Below are positions 25,240-41,410 of a stretch of 64,000 nt of DNA, piece after piece. Each line of letters opens with the position of its first letter. Positions within the stretch are counted from its first letter, which is position 1. The notes under the pieces are model-generated. The model saw only the letters and a program-made list of their open reading frames with translations. It made no database searches and was not told the DNA's origin. The DNA is from Deltaproteobacteria bacterium (GTDB lineage: Bacteria; Desulfobacterota; Dissulfuribacteria; Dissulfuribacterales; QOAL01), in the NCBI GenBank assembly GCA_026995935.1, contig JALWNK010000063.1:20684-84683 (forward strand), read 5' to 3'. Both the position numbers and the translations under genes were made by a program.

Positions 25240-26445
25240 ATGGCCCAAAACCCCTTTATAGTCCAGAGGCCCATAAAGTATGGGGAGCCTTTTTGTAACA
25301 GGACCCCGGAGATCCAGCGGCTTGAGAAGGCTGCCAACAGGTCAGAGGCAGTCTGCATCCTGTCCATCAGGCGTTTTGGCAAGACATCACTGGTGAACCA
25401 GGTCCTTGGAAGACTTGAGGAAGCTGGATGGCTCAGCATTCGTCTCGACCTTAGCCGTTGTTTTTCATTGCGTTCAATGACAAGGGAGTTTGAACGGGCC
25501 CTTTTTTCCCTTGAAGGAAATTGGAGAAGGCTTCTTGAGGGGTTAAAGACCGTATCCAGAATAAGGCCCCAGCTTGGCATTGACCCTCTTACAAGCCAGC
25601 CCTCCATTGGCTTTGACTTTTCAAGGCCAGCCGACGATGCAGAGAGGCTTAAATATATCCTTGAAAAGATAGTAGGCCTTCCAGAAAGATCAGAAGGCAA
25701 AATTCACCTTTGCATGGTGCTTGACGAATTCCAAAACATCAGGAAGATAGACCCCAAAAAGGACCTGGAATGGCTTTTTCGCTCTGTATTTCAGGAGCGC
25801 GGCCCTTTGTTTGTCCCCTTTTTACTGGGTTCAGAGAGGCACCTCCTGGATATGATGATTCGTGAGGAGTCTTCAGCCTTTTTTAAAAGTGTCACCCCAA
25901 TGACCCTGGAGGTTTTGCCTGAAATGGAGGTAGTGTCTTTTGTTAAGGGCCATTTTTTTTCCGGCCTTGGGCTTGAGGTTCCTGAAGGCCGCATCAGGGG
26001 GATATACCGGATATTTGGAGGCCACCCCTTTGCCATAAACTGGTACTGGGCAGAGATGTGGGATCTTGTGGAAAGAAGTGGCAAAATGGAGCCTGTTGAT
26101 ACATGGGTAGATGTTGCTGTAAGGATAATCCTGAATCAACGGGACTATTATGAGGCCATGAACAGCCGCCTGCCCCTTGGTGCAAGGAAGGTGCTTTTTG
26201 CCATAGCTGCAAACGAGCCTGTAAAACGGGTCTTCTCCAGGAAGTTCATGGTGGAGACACTGGGCATGGCCCAGGGCAGCCTCCAAAGCGCCATAAAGGT
26301 CCTTTTGGAGGAGGACAAGATCAGGAAGACCCCTCAGGGGCTTGTAATAAATGACCCCCTTGAAAGGCTTTCAATAGCAGTCTCAGAGCTGGATGAAGAG
26401 GCCATTGCTTCATTTGTAAGGGAACGGATTGACGTGGCAGTTTGA
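25240..26445 (+). CDS. Archaeal-type AAA/P-loop ATPase with probable C-terminal winged helix
   Basis: NPF..FCNR..E, Walker A variant SIRRFGKTS, Walker B VLDEFQ, GS motif, GGHPF. Confidence 0.8.
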   Translation: MAQNPFIVQRPIKYGEPFCNRTPEIQRLEKAANRSEAVCILSIRRFGKTSLVNQVLGRLEEAGWLSIRLDLSRCFSLRSMTREFERALFSLEGNWRRLLEGLKTVSRIRPQLGIDPLTSQPSIGFDFSRPADDAERLKYILEKIVGLPERSEGKIHLCMVLDEFQNIRKIDPKKDLEWLFRSVFQERGPLFVPFLLGSERHLLDMMIREESSAFFKSVTPMTLEVLPEMEVVSFVKGHFFSGLGLEVPEGRIRGIYRIFGGHPFAINWYWAEMWDLVERSGKMEPVDTWVDVAVRIILNQRDYYEAMNSRLPLGARKVLFAIAANEPVKRVFSRKFMVETLGMAQGSLQSAIKVLLEEDKIRKTPQGLVINDPLERLSIAVSELDEEAIASFVRERIDVAV

Positions 26446-26475
26446 AAAATTAAGGGGAATAGGGGGGAGCAGGGC

Positions 26476-26979
26476 TTGAATTTCACGGCCATTGATTTTG
26501 AAACAGCCAACCATAAAAGACACAGTGCATGCGCAGTTGGTATTGTTCGCGTGGAGAATGGAAATATAGCAGTGAAGAAGGCCTTCTTAATACGTCCACC
26601 TGAGTCTTACTTCAGGTTTACACACATCCATGGAATTACATGGAAAGATGTCAGGGATGCCCCAACCTTCAGGGATTTATGGCCAGAGATTGAGCCGCTT
26701 ATCACGGCAGGGGACTTTCTCGCAGCCCATAATGCCCCCTTTGACAGATCAGTTCTCTGCGAGACATGCAGGTTTTATGGAATAAGGCCCCCTTCTGTTG
26801 AATTTAAGTGTGCTGTCCAGATTGCCAGAAGAGTATTGGGGATAAGGCCTGCCGGCCTTTCCAATGTATGCAGGGAGCTTGGAATTTTACTCGATCATCA
26901 CCAGGCCCTTTCAGATGCCCTTGCCTGTGCAAAAATAGTTCTACATGCTGCCCGTTTGGATGCCAATGTGTCCCTTTAG
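26476..26979 (+). CDS. DEDDh 3'-5' exonuclease (DnaQ-like)
   Basis: IDFETAN, IHGIT, AHNAPFD, HHQALSDA. Confidence 0.9.
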   Translation: MNFTAIDFETANHKRHSACAVGIVRVENGNIAVKKAFLIRPPESYFRFTHIHGITWKDVRDAPTFRDLWPEIEPLITAGDFLAAHNAPFDRSVLCETCRFYGIRPPSVEFKCAVQIARRVLGIRPAGLSNVCRELGILLDHHQALSDALACAKIVLHAARLDANVSL

Positions 26980-27305
26980 TCCTTGACAGTATGCCAGTTT
27001 TTCTTGGCTCTCTATCAAGGAGATGACTTCATTATAATGTGGTCGAAACCTGGCATTTTCCAGAAAAATATCCAATTATTTGCAAATAGCCCGGAATGTC
27101 TCCCAAATAGTTCAATCACAAGAGATATGGCCAGTTTCCTTTAAATGATAATATCATTTGCCCTGCCAGGCCCTGTTTTTCCATAATCTCGAGATTTTTA
27201 TAAAGAAATGCCAAAAGAGGCGGAAATATTCCAATAAATATAGAAAGCATTATTTCCAAATACTTATCATTTAATATCTTTTGCTATAGTAAAAATGCTG
27301 TCCAT

Positions 27306-27385
27306 GTGTGAAAAATTTAATAAACTTTTCTGATATTTTTGATTTGTAATAAGAATCACAAAATATATTGTGAAAGCTTTAATTT
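27306..27385. promoter_or_regulatory. Cluster of Rex/CRP-like operator boxes upstream of the Mo-enzyme/nuo operon
   Basis: GTGTGAA-AAAT-TTAATAA (27306), TTGTAAT-AAGA-ATCACAA (27344) and TTGTGAA-AGCT-TTAATTT (27368), versus consensus TTGTGAA-N4-TTCACAA; TTGACA at 27409. Confidence 0.45.
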
Positions 27386-27536
27386 TCGCCATTTTTCTAT
27401 ATTTTTTATTGACAAATGACAAGAATTCGCTAACCATAAGTAACGAAAGTCTTGACAATTTGATTTGTCAGGGAGCCAGAGCCAAGACCAGGGAGTTTGA
27501 TCAAAAAGATCAAAAAAGCAAAAAGGAGATTGCAGT

Positions 27537-29621
27537 ATGGCAAGTTCTGTTTACAGCATCTGTGGAATGTGTGCAGTCCGTTGCCCGATTCGCGTAGAAG
27601 TTGAAGACGGCAAGGTCTCCTGGATAGAAGGCAATGCCAACGATCCAGGGATGGGGACAAGCCTTTGTGCCAAGGGCATAGCCGGCAGGGCGTTGCTTTA
27701 CGACGATGAAAGGCTTCAGTACCCGATGATAAGGGAGGGAGAGCGCGGATCAGGCAAATGGAAAAGGGTCTCATGGGATGAGGCCTTTGATTATGTAGCC
27801 TCCAAACTTAAGGATATTACGCAAAAGCACGGTGCAAGAGCGGTGATGCTGAGCGACAGGGGGGGGCCATTTGCAGACATGAGGAAGGCCTTCATGAAGG
27901 CCATAGGTTCCCCAAACTACTGCAATCACGATTGTACCTGTGGAAGAAACACGCATCATGCCTCTAAGTCCGTTTACGGGCTTGGCAGAACGGGCCTGGC
28001 TTACGATTTCAAGAATGCAAAACAGATAGTGCTCTTTGGCAGGAATATGGCCGAGTCCTTTAAGGTCAAGGAAGTGAAGTCCTTCATGCAGGGGGTCAAA
28101 AATGGAGCAAAGGTCACCTACATAGATCCCAGGGCTGCGCTAACGGCTTCAAAGTCTGCAAGGTACTGGCAGATAAGGCCTGGCACTGATTACGCGTTGC
28201 TTTTGGCAATGGCAAATGTGATTTTAAAAGACGGCCTGTATGACAAAAACTTCGTTAAGAAATATGTAACCGGGATCACCAAGCTTAAGAGTTTTGTAAA
28301 GGGCTACACTCCGGCTTGGGCAGAAAAGGAGACGGGTATCCCTGCAGATGAGATAGTTGCCTTCTGTAAGGAGATAGCCGCAGACAAGCCTAAAGTGATA
28401 TTTCATCCAGGCTGGCATCTCTCCAGGTATAACGATTCCTTCTACGCGAGCCGCATGATCCATATCCTGAATGTCCTTATGGGTAACATTGAGGTTCCTG
28501 GCGGGCAGTTTTATCCAAAGACGCCCAAAGATGCAGGCTACAAGGGCCTTAAGAGCCTGGGTGCCGATATTCCAAAGGTTGAGGAAAAGCGGGCAGACGG
28601 ATGTGGATGGAAATACAAGAGATTCGATGGTGGGCCTGGCCTTCTTCAGCTAATGTATGAGGCCATTGAGAAAGAAGATCCATATCCAGTAAAGGCCTAC
28701 TTCGTGGTAAGGCATGACCCGCTTCTAGCCATGCCAGATCCAGAGGAACAAAAACGTATCCTCAGCAAGCTTGATCTGATTGTAGTGGTTGATGTCAACT
28801 ACAGCGAAACCTTTGGTTTTGCCGACGTCATCCTGCCTGAGAGTACCTATCTTGAGCGCGACACCATGATGAGAACCGACAAGGGGCTCAAACCTGGTTT
28901 CAGCATGAGAAAGAAGGCGGTAGAGCCGGTTTATGACACAAAGGCAGGATGGGAGATTTGGACAGAGCTTGCCCAAAGGCTTGGAAAGGGTAACTACTTC
29001 CCATACAAGACCATAGAGGACATCTGGAGATATCAACTCCAGGACACGGATATCAAGCTTCAGGACTTTGATGAAAAGGGCTTCGTACAGCTTACCAAGG
29101 AACCCATCTGGTACGATAGGGACAAGCTCAAATTCCCTACACCTTCTGGGAAAATAGAGCTTGTTTCAAAGCGTCTGGAAGACGAGGATATTCCCTCCTT
29201 TATTCCCTACGAAAGTCCAAAGAAGCCGGAGAAGGGTGAATTCAGGCTGCTTTTTGGACGCACTGGTTATCAGACCCACGGACAGACCACAAACAATCCC
29301 ATTATATCCGAGTTCATGGGAACCAACTGCCTATGGATAAATACCCAGGCGGCCAAGGAACTTGGCATCAAGGACGGCCAGGAGGTTGTTATCAGCAATA
29401 AGGGTGTTACCGGAAAGATAAAGGCCAAGGTTACGGATTACATACATCCTGAAGCGGTCTTTATGCTCCATGGTTATGGCCGTTCCATACCCTTTCAGAC
29501 AAGGGCCTACAAAAAGGGCCTTGCGGACCAGATGTTCATGAAGGGGTTACTGAAGGTTTGGGACAAGGCAGGAGGGAGCATCTCTCTTTGTGAGTCTTTT
29601 GTAAAGGTCACGCCTGCATAA
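27537..29621 (+). CDS. Cytoplasmic molybdopterin (Mo/W-bisPGD) oxidoreductase catalytic subunit, PsrA/PhsA-like
   Basis: N-terminal CX2CX3CX27C (CGMCAVRC..LCAKG) starting at residue 9 with no Tat peptide; HDCTC Cys-ligand loop; RPGTD; DVILPESTYLER; C-terminal THGQT domain. Confidence 0.9.
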   Translation: MASSVYSICGMCAVRCPIRVEVEDGKVSWIEGNANDPGMGTSLCAKGIAGRALLYDDERLQYPMIREGERGSGKWKRVSWDEAFDYVASKLKDITQKHGARAVMLSDRGGPFADMRKAFMKAIGSPNYCNHDCTCGRNTHHASKSVYGLGRTGLAYDFKNAKQIVLFGRNMAESFKVKEVKSFMQGVKNGAKVTYIDPRAALTASKSARYWQIRPGTDYALLLAMANVILKDGLYDKNFVKKYVTGITKLKSFVKGYTPAWAEKETGIPADEIVAFCKEIAADKPKVIFHPGWHLSRYNDSFYASRMIHILNVLMGNIEVPGGQFYPKTPKDAGYKGLKSLGADIPKVEEKRADGCGWKYKRFDGGPGLLQLMYEAIEKEDPYPVKAYFVVRHDPLLAMPDPEEQKRILSKLDLIVVVDVNYSETFGFADVILPESTYLERDTMMRTDKGLKPGFSMRKKAVEPVYDTKAGWEIWTELAQRLGKGNYFPYKTIEDIWRYQLQDTDIKLQDFDEKGFVQLTKEPIWYDRDKLKFPTPSGKIELVSKRLEDEDIPSFIPYESPKKPEKGEFRLLFGRTGYQTHGQTTNNPIISEFMGTNCLWINTQAAKELGIKDGQEVVISNKGVTGKIKAKVTDYIHPEAVFMLHGYGRSIPFQTRAYKKGLADQMFMKGLLKVWDKAGGSISLCESFVKVTPA

Positions 29622-29633
29622 GGAGGGTATGAA

Positions 29634-30137
29634 ATGAGCAAATATCATGTTGAACAGGATATAACCCTTTGTATTGGCTGCTTGGCCTGCGAGGCAGCAT
29701 GCAAAGACAAGAATAATGTGCCAGTGGGTTCCCACTACTGCAGAATGATACCTGTGGGCCCAAGAATGGTGAGAAACATTCCCATGGTAAACCACGTCTA
29801 CATGGCATGTTTCCATTGTGAAAAACCGTGGTGCGTGGATGCGTGCCCTACAGGGGCCATGCAGAAACGTGAAAAAGACGGCATCGTATTTGTCGAGGCA
29901 GAGCTTTGCGTTGGCTGCAAGGCCTGCATAAAGGCCTGTCCCTGGGGAGTGCCACAGTGGGATTCCAATACGGGAAAGGTTGGCAAGTGTGACCTTTGTA
30001 AGGACAGGATTGACCAGGGGCTTAAGCCTGCCTGCGTCACCAAATGCACAACCGGCTCTCTGCAGTTCCTGACGCCGGAAGAGGCCTCAGAGAAAAAACG
30101 CAAAGACTTTGCGGAACAGATGCTTAAAACGGCATAG
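29634..30137 (+). CDS. 4x[4Fe-4S] electron-transfer subunit (PsrB/DmsB/NrfC-like)
   Basis: CIGCLACEAAC, CFHCEKPWCVDACP, CVGCKACIKACP, KCDLC..PACVTKC. Confidence 0.93.
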   Translation: MSKYHVEQDITLCIGCLACEAACKDKNNVPVGSHYCRMIPVGPRMVRNIPMVNHVYMACFHCEKPWCVDACPTGAMQKREKDGIVFVEAELCVGCKACIKACPWGVPQWDSNTGKVGKCDLCKDRIDQGLKPACVTKCTTGSLQFLTPEEASEKKRKDFAEQMLKTA

Positions 30138-30149
30138 GAAAGGGCAACC

Positions 30150-30527
30150 ATGACACCGGGAACCTATCTACCAACCGAGTACCTGCCCATTATGGTAATG
30201 CTTCTCTTTGCCACGGGCTTTGGAGTTGTGACCCTTTGGGTGGGAAGATTCTTCAGGCTCAGAAGACCCTACGCGGAGAAACTGGAGGCGTACGAATCTG
30301 GAAACCCGCCTTCGGCTCCTCCAAGGTTCAGGTTTTCCATCAAATTCTACCTGATTGCCATCCTGTTCGTGGTCTTTGATGTGGAGGCCATTTTCCTCTA
30401 CCCGTGGGCATTGGTTTACGACAATATCGGCGTTTTTGCCGTGATTGAGATGTTCCTTTTCATATTCTTGCTTCTTATTGGATATGCATATGCTTGGCGA
30501 AAGGAGGCCTTGGAGTGGGAAAGATAA
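30150..30527 (+). CDS. nuoA: Complex I subunit A
   Basis: [29 protein letters not shown]. Confidence 0.95.
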
Positions 30528-31036
30528 CCTCCCCGGATCTTGTGCCAGTTGCGGAAGGCATCAAGGTGATACCTGGCGCAAACACTTTTTTGATGCAGTT
30601 TGACAAGATTATTAACTGGAGCCGTACCGGTTCCATCTGGCCGGTGACCTTCGGCCTTGCCTGATGCGCCATTGAAATGATGGCTGCTGGAAGCAGCCAC
30701 CACGATTTGGACCGCTTTGGAATCATCTTCCGGGCGAGTCCAAGACAGTCCGACGCCATGATAGTGGCAGGCACTGTCACACAAAAGATGGCACCCGTTG
30801 TCCGCAGGGTTTACGACCAGATGCCAGAACCCAGATACGTCATTGCCATGGGTAGTTGCGCCTGCAGTGGCGGCGTATTCAAAACCTATCATACCGTTCA
30901 GGGCGTCGACGAGTTTTTGCCTGTGGATGTATATGTCCCAGGTTGCCCGCCGAGGCCCGAAGCTCTGCTGGAAGGCTTTATTCAACTCCAGCAGAAGATG
31001 ATGAAGGAGGAGATGAGGTGGAGCCGCTGGAGATAG
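30515..31036 (+). CDS. nuoB: Complex I subunit B, probable selenoprotein (UGA at 30662-30664, codon 50)
   Basis: GTG 30515 after AAGGAGG. Reads [51 protein letters not shown]; the canonical motif is FGLACCAIEM. Confidence 0.92.
30681..30699 (+). promoter_or_regulatory. Putative bacterial SECIS element of nuoB
   Basis: Perfect hairpin TGGCTGCT-GGA-AGCAGCCA starting 16 nt after the UGA; G-initiated apical loop. Confidence 0.75.
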
Positions 31037-31602
31037 CAAACAGACTCAAGGAGAGGTTCCCGGAACAGGTCCTCGAAGTTACTGAATGTCGTGACCAGGT
31101 AGGCATCATAGTAAAGAAGGACAGGATAGTAGAGATGCTGCGCTGGTTACACGATGACCCTTCCATGCAGCTTGATCACCTGGCTGATCTGTGTGGTGTG
31201 GACTACCTGGGTAAAAAAGATGTGCGCTTCGAGGTGGTTTACAACCTCTATTCCATTCCTCTCAGACACCGTATCCGGATACGTGCACAGGTGCCTGAGG
31301 ATGACTGTCAGATAGAGTCGGTAACCTCCATCTGGATGGGCGCAGACTGGCATGAAAGGGAATGCTTTGATCTTTTTGGCATTACCTTTAACAACCATCC
31401 TGACATGAGAAGGGTACTGCTTCCAGAGGACTGGGAAGGCTACCCCCTCAGAAAGGATTACCCATTGGATGGTGGCGGCAAGAACTGGAGGGGATATGAC
31501 GAGGTGTTGGAAAAGTCCAAGAGGTTGAGGAAGTTTGACTTCTACGGACAGTACCAGGATCCTACGAAAAGCACAGGGTTAGAAGAAGATGCCAGAAAAT
31601 AA
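31018..31602 (+). CDS. nuoC: Complex I subunit C
   Basis: [33 protein letters not shown]; GTG 31018 after GGAGG. Confidence 0.93.
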
Positions 31603-32812
31603 AGCCGAATCAAAAGAGATCGTCAGGGAGGAAGTTGCCTACGAGCCTTACACCATTGCCATGGGGCCGCAGCACCCTGCGACCCACGGGGTGCTCAAGC
31701 TGGATCTGGAGCTTGACGGTGAAACTATTTTGAACTGTAAGCCCACTGTTGGATTTCTCCACAGGGGGGTTGAAAAGCTTGCTGAAAATCTCTCATATGC
31801 CCAGACGCTGCCTCTTACTGACCGGTTGGACTACATTGCTTCAATGGCCAACAATGTGGCCTACAGTATCGCCGTTGAAAAGCTTCTGGGAATAGAGGTC
31901 CCCATGAGGGCCAAATACATCAGGACCATAGTCATGGAGATGGCGAGGCTAACAGGTCACCTGCTGTGGCTTGCAACCCACGCCCTCGATATAGGGGCCA
32001 TGACGGTTTTCCTGTACTGCTTCAGGGAGAGGGAGAATCTCCTGGACATGTTCGAGGAGATATGCGGTGCCCGTTTGACAACAAGCTATACATGCGTTGG
32101 TGGTGTCAGACAGGATGTAACCGGCCATTTCCTGGAAGCCTTGCACGCCTTCACGGATGATTTTCCTTCCAAGATAGCAGAGTATGAAACCCTTATTGAC
32201 AAGAACCGTATCTGGCTAAAGAGGACACAGGGAGTTGGAATTGTATCTGCGAAGGATGCGGTGAGCCTTGGGCTTACAGGGCCAACACTTAGGGGGTCTG
32301 GTGTCGATTATGATGTGCGCAAGCACATGCCTTATGACGCCTATCCCTATGTGGATTTTGAGGTTCCAATAGGTTCAAAGGGCGACGTGTACGACAGGTA
32401 CCGCTGCCGTATGGAGGAGATGCATCAGTCCAATTCCATCATCAGGCAGTGTATAGAGGCACTTCCCACAGGGCCGATTCGTTCGCCTGATGCGCCAGAC
32501 ATCGTTATGCCATATGGCGAGCAAAAAAGGGTAGCGGCAGACGCGACCTTTGCTTCCGGTGTCATAAAGCTCATGAAGGACAACGAGCATTACATTGACG
32601 GAGATGTCTATGTGTCCGCTGAGGTACCCAAGGGAGAGCTGGGATTCTACTTCGTCAGTGACGGCAGAGGCGTACCCTACAGGATGCACATAAGGTCCCC
32701 GTCTTATATCCATATTGGCGCGTTGCCTTTCTTGTGCAAGGGCCAGATGGTGGCAGATGTAATAGCAATAATAGGTAGTGTGGACGTAGTTTTGGGAGAG
32801 TGTGACAGATAA
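31589..32812 (+). CDS. nuoD: Complex I subunit D
   Basis: [32 protein letters not shown]; no NiFe-binding CxxC pairs. Confidence 0.96.
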
Positions 32813-32826
32813 GGATTGGGGGATAA

Positions 32827-33795
32827 ATGGAACTGTTATGGATCCTCATTAAAATCTTGATTGTCTTCGCGGTGGTGATGTTTCACGTGATGTACGCCAC
32901 CTACTTCGAACGCAAGGTTATCGGCCATATGCAGGTGCGTATGGGGCCCATGAGGGTAGGGCCGCACGGCATACTTCAGCCTATAGCAGATGGCCTCAAG
33001 TTGTTCTTTAAGGAAGACATTATTCCGACTGTGGCAGACAGAAAGGTCTTCTATGCGGCGCCCCTCATATGCCTGATTTCGGCACTAAGTGCCGTAGCGG
33101 TGGTGCCGTTTTTTGAAGGCTTTGCCATAGCCAACATCAATATTGGAATACTTTACATCTTTGCCATGAGTTCTCTGGCATCATACGGTGTGGTGCTGGC
33201 TGGCTGGTCTTCAAACTCCAAGTATTCGTTTCTTGGAGGTCTTCGCTCATCGGCCCAGGTCATAAGCTACGAGGTAGCCATGGGGTTGAGTCTCGTTGGT
33301 GTTATGATGCTATCTGGCTCCTTGAATCTGACAGATATAGTTCATGCCCAGATGAAGAGCCCTTTCAAGATTTACCTCATACCACAGATCATAGGTTTCT
33401 TCGTCTTTGTCATTGCCATGTTCGCCGAGACCAACCGTACCCCCTTTGACCTGCCAGAGGCGGAGTCGGAGCTTGTGGCAGGCTACTGTACAGAATACAG
33501 CGGTATGCGCTTCGCCCTGTTCTTCATGGCGGAATACATTGGCATGATCGTCATGTCATGCCTTGCGGTTGTCTGTTTTCTCGGTGGCTGGAGCGGACCT
33601 TTTGACGTGCCAGGAATACCGTTTTTCTGGTTCCTCATAAAGGTCTACTTCTTCATCTTCGTTTACTACTGGGTCAGGGCCACTCTTCCCCGTTACAGGT
33701 ACGATCAGCTTATGGCCCTTGGCTGGAAGGTGTTAATCCCACTTGCCCTGTTGAATATCGTGCTGACAGGGATAATTAAGTCCATGTTTGGGTAA
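32827..33795 (+). CDS. nuoH: Complex I subunit H
   Basis: ERKV..QVRMGP, QPIADGLKL..KE, RTPFDLPEAESEL, LPRYRYDQL. Confidence 0.97.
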   Translation: MELLWILIKILIVFAVVMFHVMYATYFERKVIGHMQVRMGPMRVGPHGILQPIADGLKLFFKEDIIPTVADRKVFYAAPLICLISALSAVAVVPFFEGFAIANINIGILYIFAMSSLASYGVVLAGWSSNSKYSFLGGLRSSAQVISYEVAMGLSLVGVMMLSGSLNLTDIVHAQMKSPFKIYLIPQIIGFFVFVIAMFAETNRTPFDLPEAESELVAGYCTEYSGMRFALFFMAEYIGMIVMSCLAVVCFLGGWSGPFDVPGIPFFWFLIKVYFFIFVYYWVRATLPRYRYDQLMALGWKVLIPLALLNIVLTGIIKSMFG

Positions 33796-33809
33796 TCAGG
33801 CGGGTTGCT

Positions 33810-34451
33810 ATGAAAATTCAATACGATACAAAGAAGAATCTAGCCGAGCGCATATTTTTGCTGGAGATTTTAAAGGGGCTTGGACTTACCTTGAAAAGGC
33901 TTTTTTCCAAGTCTGTTACCATCCAGTATCCCAAGGAACGAAAGGAGCTTTTTCCCGGATTCAGGGGCAAGCATGCCCTCATCAGGGATCCCAAAACCCA
34001 GGATACAAGGTGTGTGGCGTGTATGAGGTGTGCCACAGTGTGCCCTGCAAGGTGCATATCCATAAGATTCTCCGTGGATGAGAAGACACGGGCCAGGAAG
34101 GTGGAGTCTTACGAGATAGATGCACTGCGCTGCATATTCTGCGGTTACTGTGAGGAGGTATGCCCTGTAAATGCAGTGGTTCTTACCGAAGAGTACGAGT
34201 ACTCCAATTACACCAGGGAACCATTTCACTTTGACATGGAAAGACTCCTTAAGAATTGGGATGAATTTTTGGAGAAAAACAAGGTGGATCCAGACCAATA
34301 CAGGAATCCGTTTCTCAGGCCCAGGGGATTGTCTATTGGAGATCTTCCTGTGGGTAAGCGTATAGACGTGCCTGAGGAATGGACCCTTGAGGGCCAGGTA
34401 ATCTGGAAGGACGGCAAGGCCGTGTCTGCCAAGGATGCCGTTTCTGAATAG
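33810..34451 (+). CDS. nuoI: Complex I subunit I (2x[4Fe-4S]) with C-terminal extension
   Basis: TIQYP, FRGKH, CVACMRCATVCP, CIFCGYCEEVCP. Confidence 0.95.
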   Translation: MKIQYDTKKNLAERIFLLEILKGLGLTLKRLFSKSVTIQYPKERKELFPGFRGKHALIRDPKTQDTRCVACMRCATVCPARCISIRFSVDEKTRARKVESYEIDALRCIFCGYCEEVCPVNAVVLTEEYEYSNYTREPFHFDMERLLKNWDEFLEKNKVDPDQYRNPFLRPRGLSIGDLPVGKRIDVPEEWTLEGQVIWKDGKAVSAKDAVSE

Positions 34452-34461
34452 GGAGGGATAA

Positions 34462-34977
34462 ATGGTTCAGCTGTTATTCTTTTATTTTGCCTTGGTTGTG
34501 ATTGGACTGGGTCTGCGCATTGTAACCTGCAAGAACCCGGTTCACTCAGTGCTCTTAATGCTGGTCTTGTTCTTTCACATGGCAGGCTTTTACCTGTTGC
34601 TGAATGCTGAATTTCTGGCAGCGGTGCAGGTGATCGTCTATGCGGGAGCCATACTGGTGCTGTATCTGTTCGTGCTGTTTCTGGTTAATCTCAGGGAAGA
34701 GGTCAAGATGAGCCCCTTTATCGAAAAGGGCAAGTGGCTGGGAATCGTTGGGGCTGTAGCGCTTTTCATCACCTTTTTGAGGGGGGTCATGAACTTCACC
34801 CTTGGGCCTCATGGAAAGTACACCATAGAGAAGGTCCAGCAGCTTACCCATACCAAGGCCATGGGAGAGGCAATCTATACAACTTACATACTGCCATTTG
34901 AGATCGCAGGAATATTACTGCTTGTGGCTGTTATCGGCGGGCTGGCCTTGGCCAGGAAGGAAAACAAGGGGGCATAA
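34462..34977 (+). CDS. nuoJ: Complex I subunit J
   Basis: NPVHS, AEFLAAVQVIVYAGAILVL, PFE. Confidence 0.95.
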   Translation: MVQLLFFYFALVVIGLGLRIVTCKNPVHSVLLMLVLFFHMAGFYLLLNAEFLAAVQVIVYAGAILVLYLFVLFLVNLREEVKMSPFIEKGKWLGIVGAVALFITFLRGVMNFTLGPHGKYTIEKVQQLTHTKAMGEAIYTTYILPFEIAGILLLVAVIGGLALARKENKGA

Positions 34978-34978
34978 A

Positions 34979-35281
34979 ATGGTCCATTTAAGCTGGTATT
35001 TAACCGTATCAGCCATGCTGTTCTGCATTGGAGTCTTCGGGTTTCTAACAAGGCGGAACATCATAATGATGCTGTTATCCATAGAGCTCATGCTTAACTC
35101 GGTAAACCTGAATCTTGCTGCCATGAGTCACTACATGGAAGACCTTAGGGGTCAGGTCATGGTCTTCTTTATAATTGCCGTTGCAGCGGCCGAGGCGGCA
35201 ATAGGGCTGGGCATAGTAGTCACCCTGTTTAGAAATTACCGTTCAGTCCATACTGAAGACATAACTAAGCTGAAAGGATGA
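34979..35281 (+). CDS. nuoK: Complex I subunit K
   Basis: RRN..SIELMLN, VAAAEAAIGL; ATG 34979. Confidence 0.95.
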   Translation: MVHLSWYLTVSAMLFCIGVFGFLTRRNIIMMLLSIELMLNSVNLNLAAMSHYMEDLRGQVMVFFIIAVAAAEAAIGLGIVVTLFRNYRSVHTEDITKLKG

Positions 35282-35288
35282 GGTAGAG

Positions 35289-37208
35289 ATGAATATTCCC
35301 ACTTATTTACTCGTAATTCCGTTTCTGCCCCTGGCTTCCTTTATATTTACCTTACTTCTTGGGAAAAGGCTGGGAGACAAGGCGCACTGGCCGCCTATAA
35401 TAGCCGTACTTATATCCTTCCTGTGTGCCTGTTATGCCTTTGATCAGGTGCTTCATGGCAACCACGTAAACGCGGATCTCTATACCTGGTTTGCCTCTGC
35501 CAAGTTCAAGGCGTCGGTTGGGTTTCTGCTGGATGAGCTTACTGCAGTAATGCTCATAGTGGTGACCTCCATCAGCAGCCTTGTTCACATCTATTCCGTG
35601 GGCTACATGCACGATGATCCTGGCTATTACAGGTTCTTCTCCTATCTCAGTCTCTTTACCTTTTCGATGCTCATGCTGGTTCTGGGTAACAACTTCCTGC
35701 AGCTATACTTTGGCTGGGAAGCGGTTGGCCTTTCATCATACCTGCTCATCGGTTTCTGGTACCATAAGAAGTCTGCGTCTGATGCTGGAAAGAAGGCCTT
35801 CATTGTGAACAGGTTTGGAGACTTTGGGTTTGGTCTCGGAATAATGGTGGTCTTCCTTGTTTTCGGCTCTGTTCACTACGATACGGTATTTGCACATGTC
35901 CATGATGTTGTGGGGCATACCTTCAACTTCATGGGCTTTAATTTCGACGTCATAAGCCTCATGGCAATACTTTTGTTCTGCGGCGCAGTTGGTAAGTCGG
36001 CACAGATTCCACTTCATGTATGGTTGCCAGATGCCATGGAGGGCCCCACGCCAGTCAGCGCCCTCATCCATGCCGCCACCATGGTTACTGCAGGTGTCTT
36101 TCTGGTTGCAAGGTGTAATCCCATCTTCAGCCTGTCTCCTGCTGCAATGAACCTTGTAACAATCATAGGTGCGCTGACATGCTTCTTTGCTGCGACCATC
36201 GCACTGGTACAGGTGGACATAAAGAGGGTCATCGCATATTCCACAGTGAGTCAGCTGGCATACATGTTCATAGGTTGCGGCGTCGGAGCCTACGGGACTG
36301 GTATTTTTCACCTTTATACCCACGCCTATTTCAAGGCACTTCTCTTTCTAGGTGCTGGTAGCGTAATTCACGCAATGAGTGACGAGCAGGATATTAGAAA
36401 GATGGGAGGCCTCAAGAAGTATCTGCCAGTGACCTACTTTACCTTCCTGATGGCATCGCTTTCCATATCTGGAATTCCGCCCTTTGCCGGTTTTTTCAGT
36501 AAAGACCAGATACTTGCAGAGGCGTTTGCTTCCCACGTGGCTGCTGGAAAGTTTGCCTGGTTCGTTGGAACGGTTGTAGCGGCCATGACAGCCTTTTATT
36601 CCTTCAGGCTCATATTCCTCACCTTTCACGGGGAGTTCAGGGGAACAGAGGAACAGAGAAAGCACCTGCACGAATCTCCCCTTACCATGACCATACCCCT
36701 GACACTTCTTGCCCTGGGAGCCCTTGCTGCAGGCTGGGTAGGTGTTCCAGAGGTGCTTGGAGGGGAAAATGGCTGGGCACATTTCCTTGCCCCAGTTGTT
36801 GGACACCCGGAAGTTCATTTGAGTGAATTCACGGAGTGGGTGCTTATGACCATTTCCGTGGCGGCAGGTATTGGAGGAATATACCTGGCATACGTCATGT
36901 ACATGGTCAAGCCTGAGATTCCGGTTGAGCTTGCCCGTAAACATCCAAAGCTGTATGACACCCTTTTCAATAAGTACTACGTGGACGAGTTTTACAACGC
37001 CACCATAGTCGAACCCACCATTACCTGCGGAAGAAAGATACTCAGGGGCATAACGGATGGAAAGATAATAGAGGGGGTTGTCAATGGTGTTCCAGGTTTA
37101 ATCGGCAAGTTCAGTCACGTACTTGCAAAACTCCAAAACGGAAGAGTCCAGCACTATGGCGGAGTGATGGCTGTTGGTGCCTTTATTCTTCTTTGGATAT
37201 TCATGTAA
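35289..37208 (+). CDS. nuoL: Complex I antiporter-like subunit L
   Basis: GWEAVG, NRFGD, KSAQIPLHVWLPDAMEGPTPVSALIHAATMV. Confidence 0.97.
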   Translation: MNIPTYLLVIPFLPLASFIFTLLLGKRLGDKAHWPPIIAVLISFLCACYAFDQVLHGNHVNADLYTWFASAKFKASVGFLLDELTAVMLIVVTSISSLVHIYSVGYMHDDPGYYRFFSYLSLFTFSMLMLVLGNNFLQLYFGWEAVGLSSYLLIGFWYHKKSASDAGKKAFIVNRFGDFGFGLGIMVVFLVFGSVHYDTVFAHVHDVVGHTFNFMGFNFDVISLMAILLFCGAVGKSAQIPLHVWLPDAMEGPTPVSALIHAATMVTAGVFLVARCNPIFSLSPAAMNLVTIIGALTCFFAATIALVQVDIKRVIAYSTVSQLAYMFIGCGVGAYGTGIFHLYTHAYFKALLFLGAGSVIHAMSDEQDIRKMGGLKKYLPVTYFTFLMASLSISGIPPFAGFFSKDQILAEAFASHVAAGKFAWFVGTVVAAMTAFYSFRLIFLTFHGEFRGTEEQRKHLHESPLTMTIPLTLLALGALAAGWVGVPEVLGGENGWAHFLAPVVGHPEVHLSEFTEWVLMTISVAAGIGGIYLAYVMYMVKPEIPVELARKHPKLYDTLFNKYYVDEFYNATIVEPTITCGRKILRGITDGKIIEGVVNGVPGLIGKFSHVLAKLQNGRVQHYGGVMAVGAFILLWIFM

Positions 37209-37229
37209 CCAAGGGGAGGAATAGCGAAC

Positions 37230-38771
37230 ATGGATTACGGATTTCCAATACTTAGTTCCCTGATTTTCCTGCCGATTATCGGGGCAGCGGCACTGCTTTT
37301 CATACCGCGTTCAAACGAAGACGATGTCAGGCGCATGGCGCTACTTATAACCATAGTGGAGTTTCTGCTCTCACTTCCCCTATGGTTTCAGTTCGACAAG
37401 TCTTCCCACCTCATGCAGTTTGTGGAAAAGCACCCCTGGATTCCAGCGTGGAATGTCAACTACTACCTGGGCATTGATGGAATCAGCATACTCTTTGTGC
37501 TTCTTTCCACCCTCATCACAATTTTGTGTGTGCTTGTTTCATGGACTGCAATTACAGACAAGGTCAAGGAGTTTTTTGCGGCCTTGCTCTTCCTGGAAGG
37601 CGCCATGATCGGGGTGTTCTGTTCCCTTGACTTTTTCCTCTTTTACATATTCTGGGAGGCCATGCTTATTCCCATGTACCTGATAATAGGTGTATGGGGT
37701 GGGCCCGGCAGGCTGTACGCTGCCATAAAGTTCTTTCTCTACACCCTGGTGGGAAGTGTCTTGATGCTGGTTGGAATAATCACACTCTACTATCATGGGG
37801 GGCACACCTTTGATATCCTCAAGCTTTCTGCCAACACCTACCCCTTGAAGCTTCAGATGATTCTGTTCTGGGCATTCTTTGCGGCCTTTGCGGTCAAGGT
37901 CCCCATGTGGCCTGTTCATACATGGCTGCCTGACGCCCACACCGAGGCCCCTGCGGCAGGCTCTGTCATCCTTGCCGGGATCCTCATCAAGATGGGGGCT
38001 TACGGATTCCTCAGATTCTCCATGCCCATGTTTCCCCAGGCAACCCAGGCCATGATGGTGCCCATGCTGATACTTTCCATAATCGCAATAGTTTACGGGG
38101 CAGTTATCTGCCTTGGGCAGGACGATATGAAGCGTCTCATTGCCTACAGCTCCGTAAGCCACATGGGTTTTGTAACCCTTGGAATGTTCGCGCTCAATTA
38201 TCAGGGGCTTGAAGGAGCGATTCTTCAGATGGTCAATCACGGAGTCGTAACAGGCGCTCTCTTTCTTTCCATAGGTATCATTTATGAACAGACACATACC
38301 AGGGAGATTGCAGACTATGGCGGCTTGGCCTCCCTTACTCCAATTTTTGCTGGATTTTTCATGGTCTTTACCATGGCAGCCGTAGGTCTTCCCGGTCTTA
38401 ACGGGTTTATTGGCGAATTTCTCATAATCCTGGGTGGATTCGCCACTAAGACCTGGGCTGGTTTTTTCGCTGCAACTGGAATCATCATAGGCGCAGGTTA
38501 TATGCTCTGGCTCTATCAGCGAGTCTTTTTCATGGAAAAGAACCCAAAGATGGTCTCGCTTGGGCTTCGTGACTTGAACTGCAGGGAATTTATCACCCTT
38601 CTACCCATGCTGCTTCTCATATTCTGGATTGGAATTTATCCCAACACCTTTTTGAGCTACATGCATGCCTCTGTTGCCCACTTGCTGCAACAGGTCCATG
38701 CGTCAACGGGAAGTGTCCAGGCTAATACCAATGCCATAGTAGAATGTGCGCTTCGATTCATAGGAGGCTAG
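37230..38771 (+). CDS. nuoM: Complex I antiporter-like subunit M
   Basis: GIDGIS, FWEAMLIP, VKVPMWPVHTWLPDAH, AYSSVSHMG. Confidence 0.97.
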   Translation: MDYGFPILSSLIFLPIIGAAALLFIPRSNEDDVRRMALLITIVEFLLSLPLWFQFDKSSHLMQFVEKHPWIPAWNVNYYLGIDGISILFVLLSTLITILCVLVSWTAITDKVKEFFAALLFLEGAMIGVFCSLDFFLFYIFWEAMLIPMYLIIGVWGGPGRLYAAIKFFLYTLVGSVLMLVGIITLYYHGGHTFDILKLSANTYPLKLQMILFWAFFAAFAVKVPMWPVHTWLPDAHTEAPAAGSVILAGILIKMGAYGFLRFSMPMFPQATQAMMVPMLILSIIAIVYGAVICLGQDDMKRLIAYSSVSHMGFVTLGMFALNYQGLEGAILQMVNHGVVTGALFLSIGIIYEQTHTREIADYGGLASLTPIFAGFFMVFTMAAVGLPGLNGFIGEFLIILGGFATKTWAGFFAATGIIIGAGYMLWLYQRVFFMEKNPKMVSLGLRDLNCREFITLLPMLLLIFWIGIYPNTFLSYMHASVAHLLQQVHASTGSVQANTNAIVECALRFIGG

Positions 38772-38778
38772 TAAAGAC

Positions 38779-40218
38779 ATGGTTACAGGATTTTCTTTAC
38801 CAATCATTGCACCCCTAGGGCCTGAAATTTTTCTCGCAGTCATCGGCTGCGCAGTGATACTTGCCGATATCATCTGGAATGAGCAGCGATACGTCGTCCC
38901 CATAGTGGCAATGGCAGGTGCTGCTGCCACTGTTATCATGGTGTTAAAGGCCTCGGGCATCTCTTTTTCCGGGATGTACACCGTTGATTCCTACAGTGCC
39001 TTTTTCAAGATCGTGTGCCTCCTGGGGCTCATGTTGGCCATCCTCATGTCTCTGCGTCACTTGGACATAATGGGTGTCAAAAGGGTAGGTGAGTACTACA
39101 GCCTCATGGTCTTCTCCTGTGTAGGCATGATGATAATGGCCTCCGCAACCGATCTCATTGTGCTTTACCTGGGACTCGAGTTGATGGCCCTTAGTGTCTA
39201 CTGTCTTGTAGGGCTTTTAAAGACCGATCCCAGAGCGTCAGAGGCAGCCATGAAGTATCTGCTTCTTGGTGCCTTTGCCTCTTGTCTCCTTCTATTTGGC
39301 ATGTCCTATCTTTATGGTACAACTGGAACCACCGATATGGCTCAGATTTCAAAGGCAATGGCCCAGGGCAAGCTTAGTGGTAATCCTGCCTTCATGATGG
39401 GGCTTGGCCTGGTGGTAATTGCATTCTGTTTCAAGGTTGCCGCAGCACCTTTTCATATGTGGACCCCTGACGCCTATGAAGGTGCCATGACGCCTGTTAC
39501 CGCCTTCATGTCCGTTGGGCCAAAGGCCGCAGGCTTTGCAGCCCTTGGCAGGGTCCTTATGGAGGCCTTTCCAAACGCCCATTCCGACTGGATGACTGCC
39601 CTTATAATCATGGCATTTCTCACCATAGCCATTGGTAACATAACGGCCCTTTGCCAGACATCCATCAAAAGGATGCTTGCCTACTCATCCATTGCCCATG
39701 CAGGTTACGCACTCATAGGCTTTTTGCCAGGCACAGCGGAAGGTGCCTCAGCTACCATGAACTATCTCTTTATCTATCTCTTTATGAACATGGGGGCCTT
39801 TGCAGTGATAATTCTCTTGCAGTACAAGGGGCTTGTTGGTGAGGCCCTGGAAGACTACAAGGGCCTTGCAAAGACGCACCCAGTGGCGGCAGGCCTTATG
39901 CTTGTATTCATGTTTTCCCTTACAGGAATCCCCCCAACGGCCGGCTTTATTGGCAAGTTCAATCTCTTCATGGCAGCACTCCATGCAGGTTACACATGGA
40001 TAGTTATATTTGCCGTACTCTTTAGCGCAATTTCTGCATACTTTTACCTTAGGGTCATCATGCTAATGTACATGTACGAGCCAGAAAGAGAGATGAAACT
40101 TGCTCCCTCAGGTGCCCTTTCAGCGGTCCTGGCCATAGCCCTCACAGGCGTTATTCTCCTTGGTTGCTATCCAAACGGCATTCTTTCCTATGCATCAAAG
40201 GCCATAATGGGACACTAA
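38779..40218 (+). CDS. nuoN: Complex I antiporter-like subunit N
   Basis: EAAMKY, FKVAAAPFHMWTPDAYEG, KRMLAYSSIAHAGY, GIPPTAGF. Confidence 0.97.
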   Translation: MVTGFSLPIIAPLGPEIFLAVIGCAVILADIIWNEQRYVVPIVAMAGAAATVIMVLKASGISFSGMYTVDSYSAFFKIVCLLGLMLAILMSLRHLDIMGVKRVGEYYSLMVFSCVGMMIMASATDLIVLYLGLELMALSVYCLVGLLKTDPRASEAAMKYLLLGAFASCLLLFGMSYLYGTTGTTDMAQISKAMAQGKLSGNPAFMMGLGLVVIAFCFKVAAAPFHMWTPDAYEGAMTPVTAFMSVGPKAAGFAALGRVLMEAFPNAHSDWMTALIIMAFLTIAIGNITALCQTSIKRMLAYSSIAHAGYALIGFLPGTAEGASATMNYLFIYLFMNMGAFAVIILLQYKGLVGEALEDYKGLAKTHPVAAGLMLVFMFSLTGIPPTAGFIGKFNLFMAALHAGYTWIVIFAVLFSAISAYFYLRVIMLMYMYEPEREMKLAPSGALSAVLAIALTGVILLGCYPNGILSYASKAIMGH

Positions 40219-40249
40219 TTTTCTACAACAGACGCCTCCTTTGTTTTGT

Positions 40250-40283
40250 AAGGCGCCTTGGGTCACTCCAGGGCGCCTTTTTT
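40250..40283 (+). terminator. Rho-independent terminator closing the Mo-enzyme/nuo operon
   Basis: AAGGCGCCTTGG-GTCACT-CCAGGGCGCCTT followed by TTTT. Confidence 0.85.
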
Positions 40284-40455
40284 AGTCTTTGGATGTCTGT
40301 AAAATTTTTTTGAATCGGACTATTCTGTAAGTCAATGAAAGATACATGTCAAAAAAAAGAGCAGATAAACTGACATGGATTTTGCAATGAATCGCTTTTG
40401 AATAAGGAGAAACATAATATCAGTCAATAGTTGAAATGTTCAAATTGGAGGCCTT

Positions 40456-41358
40456 ATGTCCAAAACCATGTGTCTGTTTTTCTGTCTTTTTTCTTTCCCG
40501 TTTAATTTGTCATTGGCTTATGGGGGAATCCTTGTAGATACATCCTGGCTTAGGGATCACCTGAAAGAGCAGGATATAAGGGTACTTGATGTCAGCAGGG
40601 ATCCGGCCTTTTATGAAAAACGCCATATTCCAGGTGCCCTCCAGGTCTTCAGACACCGGGACCTTGAAGACTATACTAGCTATCCTCCTGTGGGATTTCC
40701 TCAAAAAAGGCAGTTTCTGGCCCTCATGAGACGTCTTGGTATCTCAAACAAGACCATGGTGGTGGCCTATGACGATAACAATGGAATGTATGCCTCAAGG
40801 ATGGTCTTTCTCATGCAGCTTTATGGCCATCCCATGGAAAAGCTCAAGATTTTAAACGGCGGGATAAAGCAGTGGGTGGAGGAGGGATTGCCTGTAGAAG
40901 AAGGTTCTTTGAGTGTCAATGAAGAGGCAAAACCATACAGGCCTGGAAAGAGGAGAGTGGAATACCTTGCCACGTGGCAAGATATATACAGAAAGGTGGT
41001 TCAGGAAAGATCTAAACACTTTGTCCTGCTGGACGTGCGTCCTGAGGACGAATATGACGGAGACAAGGTAAGGCTTGTCAGGGGAGGACACATCCCTGGT
41101 GCGGTCAATCTAGAGGTGGCCGCTATTTCTTTGGGTAGCGGCAGCCATTTGTGGGAAACCCCTGAAAGACTTGAGGCAATTTTCCAAAAAGAAGGTATTA
41201 CCAAGGACAAGACGATTATTATCTACTGCCATTCCGGAGATAGAAGTGCCCATGCCTTTGTGATACTAAAGGACTTGCTTTACTATCCAGATGTGAGGAT
41301 TTACGAAGGCGCATGGGAGGAGTGGGCGGTTCTTCAGGCCCTTCCGGTGGAAGAATAG
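40456..41358 (+). CDS. Tandem-domain rhodanese/sulfurtransferase with N-terminal signal peptide
   Basis: HIPGA twice, LNGG, LDVR, active-site YCHSGDRS, YEGAWEEW; hydrophobic N-terminus ending in SLAYG. Confidence 0.88.
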   Translation: MSKTMCLFFCLFSFPFNLSLAYGGILVDTSWLRDHLKEQDIRVLDVSRDPAFYEKRHIPGALQVFRHRDLEDYTSYPPVGFPQKRQFLALMRRLGISNKTMVVAYDDNNGMYASRMVFLMQLYGHPMEKLKILNGGIKQWVEEGLPVEEGSLSVNEEAKPYRPGKRRVEYLATWQDIYRKVVQERSKHFVLLDVRPEDEYDGDKVRLVRGGHIPGAVNLEVAAISLGSGSHLWETPERLEAIFQKEGITKDKTIIIYCHSGDRSAHAFVILKDLLYYPDVRIYEGAWEEWAVLQALPVEE

Positions 41359-41410
41359 GAAGTCTTGATTGCAACCTGCGCTATATCTTGCTTGGGAGGC
41401 TCCAAAGGAA

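Follow-up and report, generated by a model that had tools for sequence, protein, structure and literature searches.

An 11-subunit complex I operon led by a PsrA/PhsA-like molybdoenzyme, with a putative selenocysteine at cluster N2, in a member of the Dissulfuribacterales

Polysulfide and thiosulfate reductases of the Psr/Phs type are listed as periplasmic in a review of MopB enzymes (PMC10100899), and Phs is said to use the proton motive force (pmf) through its membrane anchor (Stoffels 2012, cited in PMC13490349). Here we describe an operon at 27537-40218 on the + strand of a 64,000-nt stretch of contig JALWNK010000063.1 (assembly GCA_026995935.1, a member of the Dissulfuribacterales; the whole stretch is called the window below). 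It consists of 13 co-directional genes, assigned from the list of open reading frames (ORFs) and from Pfam and NCBIfam profiles: a molybdoenzyme subunit (MoA) and an iron-sulfur subunit (MoB), followed by NuoABCDHIJKLMN. We give an even chance to the explanation that the 13 gene products form one complex-I-type membrane complex acting as a pmf-driven menaquinol:thiosulfate/polysulfide oxidoreductase.

PhsAB-like pairs without an anchor subunit are described in published passages on sulfur disproportionators. The Phs of Desulfolithobacter dissulfuricans is without subunit C, which is thought to be needed to reach quinone; the locus tags of its PhsA-1 (GF1_30490), PhsB-1 (GF1_30500), NuoA (GF1_30510) and NuoB (GF1_30520) are consecutive, and these two Nuo subunits were detected in thiosulfate disproportionation only (PMC9751629). 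The pair that rises most under thiosulfate disproportionation in Dissulfuribacter thermophilus lacks both PhsC and a twin-arginine translocation (Tat) leader, and is read by the authors as soluble, with electrons coming directly from sulfite oxidation (AprAB); the same passage asks that “potential membrane association” be examined (PMC13490349). Nuo and PhsAB appear side by side among the highly transcribed loci of ‘Candidatus Desulfobulbus rimicarensis’ (PMC7117923). A literature search, with most subscription journals outside its coverage, found no stated Phs-Nuo link in passages on these organisms.

The energetic step that disproportionation leaves unsolved is that electrons from sulfite oxidation arrive near the potential of menaquinone, while thiosulfate reduction needs about −400 mV. 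Recent proteomic papers, in the passages concerned, give an anchor-less cytoplasmic PhsAB-like enzyme a central place and either leave its donor open or propose direct uphill transfer. A PhsAB-like pair joined to a reversible, proton-pumping complex I would be a concrete and testable mechanism for this step, and would suggest one electron donor or acceptor for the 11-subunit complex I enzymes that are numerous among anaerobes.

Gene content of the operon and its genome

MoA (27537..29621, +; 694 aa) contains the Pfam domains Molybdop_Fe4S4, Molybdopterin and Molydop_binding, and its best match among solved structures is Thermus PsrA (2vpw_A, E = 1.4e-116), in an alignment over MoA residues 3-691. 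The Mo-ligand Cys173 of PsrA aligns to Cys135 of MoA, the Mo-ligand cysteine is conserved in 17/17 nuo-linked MoA homologues, and MoA has both the FS0 cysteine motif and the Mo-ligand cysteine by which catalytic MopB subunits are recognized. From its sequence, MoA looks like a catalytic subunit carrying a molybdenum or tungsten bis(pyranopterin guanine dinucleotide) cofactor (Mo/W-bisPGD). The MoA superfamily also has Mo-less members, among them NuoG, QrcB and ActB. MoA could in principle be a cofactor-less relic of the NuoG or QrcB kind in a complex that takes electrons from ferredoxin, and it does have weaker NCBIfam matches to QrcB (166 bits) and NuoG (72.6 bits), just as ActB is listed without Mo/W-bisPGD (PMC10100899). 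The PhsA profile scores 596.7 bits, however, the PsrA alignment runs nearly end to end with the Mo-ligand cysteine in place, and close paralogues of MoA serve as catalytic units connected to NAD(P)H flavoproteins; we consider a relic very improbable.

The N-terminus of MoA reads MASSVYSICGMC, and the alignments begin at position 42 of the PhsA profile and residue 38 of PsrA, so that both start past the leader and MoA lacks a Tat peptide, as an earlier annotation made without database searches (the sequence-only reading) had proposed. That reading also saw no PsrC/NrfD anchor: none lies within the operon, and a search of the genome located five NrfD genes, all on other contigs. MoB (29634..30137, +; 167 aa), a 4x[4Fe-4S] electron-transfer subunit by its Fer4_11 and DmsB-type matches, resembles PsrB (2vpw_B, E = 5.5e-27) and has 17 invariant cysteines, as expected of a four-cluster iron-sulfur subunit.

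All 11 conserved subunits of complex I (NuoA, B, C, D, H, I, J, K, L, M and N) are present by Pfam, with NuoD, H, I and K above their NCBIfam cut-offs. On the + strand, nuoA (30150..30527; PF00507, E = 3e-36) overlaps nuoB, which overlaps nuoC (31018..31602; PF00329), whose GTG start at 31018 stands behind GAAGGAGGAG and whose end in turn overlaps nuoD (31589..32812; TIGR01962, 509 bits, above cut-off). These are followed by nuoH (32827..33795; PF00146, E = 8e-131), nuoI (33810..34451; 213 aa, 2x[4Fe-4S], TIGR01971 above cut-off; the presumed docking partner of MoB), nuoJ (34462..34977; PF00499), nuoK (34979..35281, from ATG 34979; PF00420) and three genes with Proton_antipo_M matches, nuoL (35289..37208, with Proton_antipo_N as well), nuoM (37230..38771) and nuoN (38779..40218). 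NuoD carries HPATHG and LTDRLDYI motifs, whose His and Tyr we take to form the quinone site. Its C-terminus reads VVLGECDR and its NiFeSe_Hases Pfam score is 18.8 against a cut-off of 25.8, so the NiFe-binding cysteines of a hydrogenase are missing.

Gaps of 12 nt separate MoA from MoB and MoB from nuoA, one of 14 nt separates nuoD from nuoH, and no nuoE, nuoF or nuoG lies between the last two. An intrinsic-terminator-like hairpin with a 13-bp stem, 8 GC pairs and a T run closes the operon (40250..40279, +). Terminator-like sites number 7 in 26800-41600 against a shuffle mean of 16; the six others have 3 GC pairs each, and no hairpin comparable to 40250-40279 occurs inside the gene cluster. 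The spacings, the missing nuoEFG, the single terminator past nuoN and the NuoD motifs had all been read correctly from the letters. The run nuoABCD, however, is not a plain one, because nuoB contains an in-frame TGA at 30662-30664.

Neither NuoF (PF01512) nor NuoE (PF01257) has a match anywhere in the genome, which is estimated to be 100% complete; NuoG was not searched as a family. An NADH module encoded elsewhere, which would have told against the sequence-only reading, is therefore absent as far as NuoE and NuoF are concerned. Besides the selenocysteine codon, that reading overlooked two further loci of the genome. A second 11-subunit nuoABCDHIJKLMN operon on contig C77 (L016:1638-12115, − strand) has a normal Cys-Cys NuoB, no Mo genes and a NuoD on a very long branch; upstream of it are a 113-aa ORF without a Pfam family and diverging UbiD/UbiX-like genes. 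An orphan pair on contig C60 (L147:8755-11318), MoA2 (704 aa, 55% identical to MoA) and MoB2 (150 aa), has no membrane or flavoprotein partner nearby, in a contig that ends about 0.8 kb downstream. For the remainder of the disproportionation pathway the genome has DsrA and AprA.

Conservation and function of the Mo-nuo link

The order MoA-MoB-nuoA...N recurs in 14 of the 80 loci retrieved with MoA, and by coordinates MoA adjoins NuoB in 16 of the 401 genomes sampled from the phylum (Desulfobacterota), in 5 families, with seven of these loci mapped in full. Conservation of this synteny had been named as a check, and on all three computational points by which the sequence-only reading stood to be contradicted (synteny, NuoE and NuoF in the genome, and PsrC/NrfD in the operon) the results favoured its interpretation. 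A rearranged order, MoA-MoB-NuoB-NuoD-NuoI-NuoA-NuoC-NuoH, occurs in family f38 and metagenome locus L164 and still keeps the Mo genes joined to Q-module genes. In a NuoD tree of 31 rows, 17 Mo-linked operons and one ferredoxin-linked operon form a clade (99/100), apart from the selenocysteine (Sec)-type operons that other families have and distant from the second Nuo of the genome, and in an MoA tree of 76 rows the 18 nuo-linked MoA fall in one clade (99). One further locus (f48/L071) has its MoA among relatives that are not nuo-linked and its NuoD within the Mo-linked clade, which suggests that the slot upstream of nuoA was refilled by another MoA paralogue rather than lost.

Three other arrangements were observed. 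Family f102 (L129:10503-11642, L130:4788-5902) has two MoB-like four-cluster genes between MoA and nuoA. In f38 (L134:5847-6269) a nuo operon of the Mo-linked clade has a 141-aa MoB-like ferredoxin upstream of nuoA and no MoA. The Nuo cluster RS03515-03575 of Desulfurivibrio dismutans comprises 13 locus tags and 11 named subunits in the passage available, and serves as a lead only.

A C-terminal tail of about 20 residues, TPEEASEKKRKDFAEQMLKTA, is found in 20/20 nuo-linked MoB and is absent from the orphan paralogue of the same genome. Relatives of the pair at about 50% identity in Desulfobulbales, Desulfobacterales and Desulfovibrionales adjoin a GltD-like NAD(P)H flavoprotein of about 720 aa, which is the neighbour in 25 of the 76 MoA rows, in clusters that also hold a 2Fe-2S/4Fe-4S protein, TauE/SafE and sigma-54 regulators. 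Among 29 longer relatives of MoB, about 14 are fusions with the GltD-like flavoprotein. MoB therefore looks, by sequence, like an adaptor subunit that connects its catalytic partner to a redox partner.

The presumed docking of MoB on NuoI was examined by two-chain folding with alignments that we built. The median score is 0.39 (runs 0.37, 0.39 and 0.55) against 0.00 for the best control, with at least 83% of contacts agreeing between runs and a partner pLDDT (predicted local distance difference test) of at least 83. In the benchmark, 58 of 80 solved complexes passed the mark set for the score, as did 2 of 110 mismatched pairs, but at 0.60 or under lie only 7 of the 80 solved complexes and both of the passing mismatches. 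The fold thus speaks for docking weakly, and since a solved HycB-HycF complex of formate hydrogenlyase exists, the score may merely echo that likeness. A C-terminal extension of NuoI was considered as the docking element and rejected: NuoI has 211-226 aa in families f1, f24 and f48 as against 178-186 aa in f102 and f38.

Several observations besides the fold weigh against a single sulfur-reducing complex. The PhsA score of MoA lies below the 694-bit cut-off of the NCBIfam equivalog NF012032, and the residues at and after the Mo-ligand cysteine vary by clade (CGRN, CDLN, CAVS, CRKD, CSNS), so that the substrate of MoA may differ between clades. No fusion of MoB with a Nuo subunit occurs among the 29 longer relatives, and the orphan MoA2/MoB2 indicates that a module of this kind can occur by itself. 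The passage on D. thermophilus reports a lower abundance of the Nuo subunits DITHS69_2265-2274 under thiosulfate disproportionation and a higher one of the PhsAB-like pair (PMC13490349); if these are the Mo-linked Nuo, this speaks against co-regulation.

The lack of MoB-Nuo fusions, the orphan pair and the weak fold would be at home in an alternative in which MoA/MoB is a soluble thiosulfate/polysulfide reductase and Nuo a separate ferredoxin:menaquinone oxidoreductase, the two being co-transcribed because both serve sulfur disproportionation, and linked by a soluble carrier or not at all. The view of the D. thermophilus authors that the pair is soluble and AprAB-fed agrees with this alternative, as does the commonness of 11-subunit Nuo without Mo genes, NuoB being matched in 315 and MoA in 111 of the 401 genomes. 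Separate enzymes do not, however, readily account for an adjacency that outlasts the rearrangement placing MoA-MoB directly before NuoB-D-I, for the clade of their own formed by Mo-linked NuoD, for a MoB tail specific to nuo-linked copies, or for the refilling of the f48 slot from a different MoA clade. From the potentials given in PMC13490349, direct transfer from Apr to Phs would moreover have to climb about 330 mV without any input of energy. We regard separate enzymes as somewhat unlikely. The 13-subunit sulfur-compound:quinone oxidoreductase put forward by the sequence-only reading is in turn favoured by synteny, by the absence of NuoE/F and by the lack of NrfD in the operon, and gains little from the fold; the physical attachment of MoAB to Nuo, the substrate and the direction of electron flow are what we infer from these features.

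In the single-complex explanation, the NuoEFG input module (N-module) would be replaced by the cytoplasmic PsrA/PhsA-type MoA and the four-cluster ferredoxin subunit MoB. Electrons would pass between Mo-bisPGD and FS0 in MoA, the four [4Fe-4S] clusters of MoB, the two clusters of NuoI, cluster N2 in NuoB and menaquinone at the NuoB/D/H site, and their transfer would be coupled to proton movement through NuoA, H, J, K, L, M and N. The complex would run backwards, with pmf lifting electrons from menaquinol to thiosulfate or polysulfide in the cytoplasm, and in this mode would supply the reductive branch of thiosulfate and sulfur disproportionation. Complex I usually moves 4 H+ per 2 e-. At that stoichiometry, the 328 mV between menaquinone (about −74 mV) and thiosulfate (about −402 mV; both values from PMC13490349) calls, by our calculation for two electrons, for a pmf of about 165 mV. 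Four protons at this pmf could cover the gap; energetically, then, a reversed complex I with a cytoplasmic thiosulfate reductase would be suited to the reductive branch.

Complex I and Psr-type enzymes can in principle work in either direction. An assembly of this kind could also operate forward, with MoA/MoB oxidising, for example, sulfide to polysulfide, or sulfide and sulfite to thiosulfate, while Nuo pumps protons and conserves energy; the sequence-only reading itself had left the direction open. An up-regulation of nuo genes in S0 disproportionation, which the authors of that passage connect with extra energy conservation (PMC12142623), would agree with forward operation, as would the sister operons with Sec-type NuoB that have a Sec-containing formate dehydrogenase-like gene, a donor-type module, upstream of nuoA. 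The published passages nevertheless have PhsAB-like abundance following thiosulfate as substrate, and describe thiosulfate disproportionation as needing a reductive cleavage at very low potential. Forward operation is accordingly a distinctly improbable account of the main role of this complex, and reverse operation the one we prefer.

The in-frame TGA of nuoB

The nuoB frame (30515..31036, +) starts at GTG 30515 behind AAAGGAGG, meets TGA at 30662-30664 and continues to 31036, with matches to the NuoB family; translation table 11 splits it into a 49-codon piece and a 119-aa ORF. The TGA takes the place of the first cysteine in GLA-CC-A-I-E-M-M (motif GLA-CC-xEMM, cluster N2) and aligns to the first cysteine of GLACCAVEMM in mitochondrial PSST, NuoB being about 60% identical to PSST 7arc_B (E = 3e-64). 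We take the tandem cysteines of NuoB to be ligands of cluster N2, as in solved structures. NuoB departs from the four-cysteine pattern of N2 in that position one is TGA (read as Sec) and position two is cysteine, and selenocysteine would replace the first of the two tandem cysteine ligands.

Contigs from three other studies retain the TGA. One (X3 record 22) has 0 differences over 30183-31187, and the single difference in another (X6 record 28) and the two in the third (X10 record 5) fall outside the TGA, which argues that it is not an assembly error. Across 14 syntenic loci the codon is TGA in 11 and TGC in 3. A candidate selenocysteine insertion sequence (SECIS) hairpin, GGCUGCU-GGA-AGCAGCC (30682..30698, +), starts 18 nt past the UGA; in the syntenic loci it is retained together with the TGA codon, C-to-U changes keeping G-U pairs, and in a Cys-type orthologue (L027) synonymous codons for the same amino acids disrupt it. 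The machinery for Sec is encoded in the genome, with tRNA-Sec (selC) on contig C7, SelB on C23, and SelA and SelD on C48. The in-frame TGA, the conserved hairpin downstream, the cysteine of orthologues and the presence of selA, selB, selC and selD together make NuoB a probable selenoprotein, and the reading of this UGA as Sec is well supported by sequence evidence. Two other likely selenoprotein genes of this genome have one in-frame TGA each: SelD (G000:C48:27361-28284) and a weak match to the DsrA family (G000:C18:7219-7767).

Were the TGA a real stop, as table 11 has it, nuoB would be a pseudogene in a decaying operon. The hairpin by itself leaves some room for this: single-sequence folding is modestly better than shuffles (z of −2.3 and −1.9), and in loci L130 and L143 the minimum-energy fold differs from the proposed hairpin. 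Against a stop stand the 12 other genes of the operon, which are intact, the Sec machinery, the TGC orthologues and the recurrence of TGA at the same codon, both in the syntenic loci and in 14/14 further TGA loci from five other families, in which the matched part of NuoB has no other stop. Six further loci of the comparison have Cys-Cys at the N2 motif. The Sec loci of the other families carry a different class of hairpin at a nearly equal distance from the TGA. In an 11-sequence alignment of this sister class, 2 of 7 stem pairs covary (GC to CG and CG to UA), 88% of cells are paired as against 14-51% with the partner columns slid, and the covariation score is equalled by 0/500 shuffles, which for related sequences is supportive and not decisive. 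A degenerate DNA pattern of the TGA motif finds at least 119 metagenome stretches, among which additional hairpin sequence classes occur at the same register. We find a real stop barely credible, and continue with the UGA as a Sec codon.

Exactly one TGA was present in 19 of 150 NuoB matches among those listed from the 401 genomes, with 336 further matches beyond these. A search of 5.8 billion predicted proteins with NuoB returned no full-length relative above 88% identity, and six full-length relatives that were inspected have CC in 6/6; Sec-NuoB thus seems to be missing as a full-length gene call. Close Cys-type relatives of NuoB from this search bear the labels Dissulfurispiraceae and Thermodesulfovibrionia, both in Nitrospirota. 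Standard gene callers split nuoB in organisms with Sec-NuoB. No report of Sec in NuoB or PSST was found in a literature search with most subscription journals outside its coverage, and a table of marine selenoprotein families, in the part available, has no NuoB/PSST entry (PMC2398784).

Other genes lie next to some Sec-type operons. In family f19 (L143:5124-7796, − strand; also L137, L142, L144 and L145) an 890-aa formate-dehydrogenase-like gene with a NuoG-like N-terminus and a TGA of its own in CARL-U-H lies directly upstream of nuoA, a second kind of Mo/W enzyme before a nuo operon without nuoEF. Between nuoD and nuoH, the Sec-type operon of metagenome locus L160 has a GltD-like flavoprotein and a NuoG/Fdh-like gene, and that of L162 a NuoG/Fdh-like gene. 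Among 80 metagenome TGA-motif loci, 14 encode a mitochondrial-type PSST/NDUFS7-like protein (EMMHAAAARYD, GSCANGGGYYHYSY): L150, L152, L158, L161, L174, L177, L186, L192, L194, L197, L213, L215, L219 and L223. Five of these that were checked have a GC content of 56-70% and no matched nuo neighbours, and one has an intron-like insert; from their sequences, the PSST-like loci could belong to the nuclear genomes of planktonic eukaryotes, with Sec at the N2 position.

With a Sec ligand at N2, the quinone-reducing cluster, nature would have provided an experiment on how the chemistry of that cluster determines the direction and coupling of complex I. Tentatively, and as a possibility rather than an expectation, the operon may encode the missing reverse-electron-transport engine of disproportionation, a MoA-capped, pmf-spending complex that drives electrons about 330 mV uphill through a Sec-ligated N2, and Sec-N2 may be a widespread and unrecognised tuning of complex I across bacterial families and input modules, apparently also in plankton PSST.

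Upstream, the operon is preceded by an intergenic region of 556 nt (26980..27536, +), the presumed promoter region, in which sigma-70-like sites are weak matches only (9/12, at 27128-27270) that do not exceed shuffles; Rfam gave zero matches across 26000-41500 at E up to 1. The flanks of the operon are housekeeping genes. Just past the terminator, 40456-41358 encodes a tandem-rhodanese protein, 3-mercaptopyruvate sulfurtransferase-like (below cut-off), with a hydrophobic N-terminus resembling a signal peptide; it has no match in any related locus, most of which end before that point. A NapH/MauN-family membrane ferredoxin-type protein (below cut-off) lies nearby at 42323-43303 (−).

Comparison with known systems

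In formate hydrogenlyase, HycB docks on HycF. This complex (FdhF-HycB-HycCDEFG; 7z0s/7z0t) is the closest known analogue, with a Tat-less cytoplasmic Mo-bisPGD enzyme and a multi-cluster ferredoxin subunit likewise set on the NuoI-like subunit of a membrane module of the complex I type; the match of MoB to HycB (7z0s_B) has E = 3.1e-14 and that of MoA to FdhH E = 5.3e-51. In contrast to formate hydrogenlyase, the NuoD of this operon has the motifs of a quinone site and lacks NiFe ligands, the antiporter-like subunits L, M and N are all present, and the Mo subunit is of Psr/Phs rather than formate dehydrogenase descent, with menaquinone rather than protons as the probable partner.

PsrA and PsrB of the PsrABC/PhsABC systems (2vpw) are the closest sequence relatives of MoA and MoB, sharing the Mo-ligand cysteine and the cluster motifs. 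Unlike them, MoAB has neither a Tat leader nor an NrfD-type anchor and is predicted to be cytoplasmic, and the membrane arm of complex I would take over the role of the Phs anchor. The PhsAB-like proteins of Dissulfuribacter thermophilus and Desulfolithobacter dissulfuricans are the same type of pair, Tat-less, without subunit C, and abundant or induced in thiosulfate disproportionation. The passages of PMC13490349 and PMC9751629 concerned treat them as soluble enzymes without a membrane partner and make no connection with the neighbouring nuo genes. The NAD(P)H-linked clusters also contain an MoA and MoB, about 50% identical, but their partner is a GltD/NfnB-like flavoprotein and they have no nuo genes.

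With the canonical 14-subunit complex I the operon shares all 11 Q-module and membrane subunits in their usual order. It differs in the PsrA-like and four-cluster subunits encoded upstream of nuoA, in the probable Sec as first N2 ligand, and in belonging to a genome without NuoE and NuoF. Within the modular family of complex I, the operon is a variant to which Sec at N2, as read from the UGA codon, adds a further feature.

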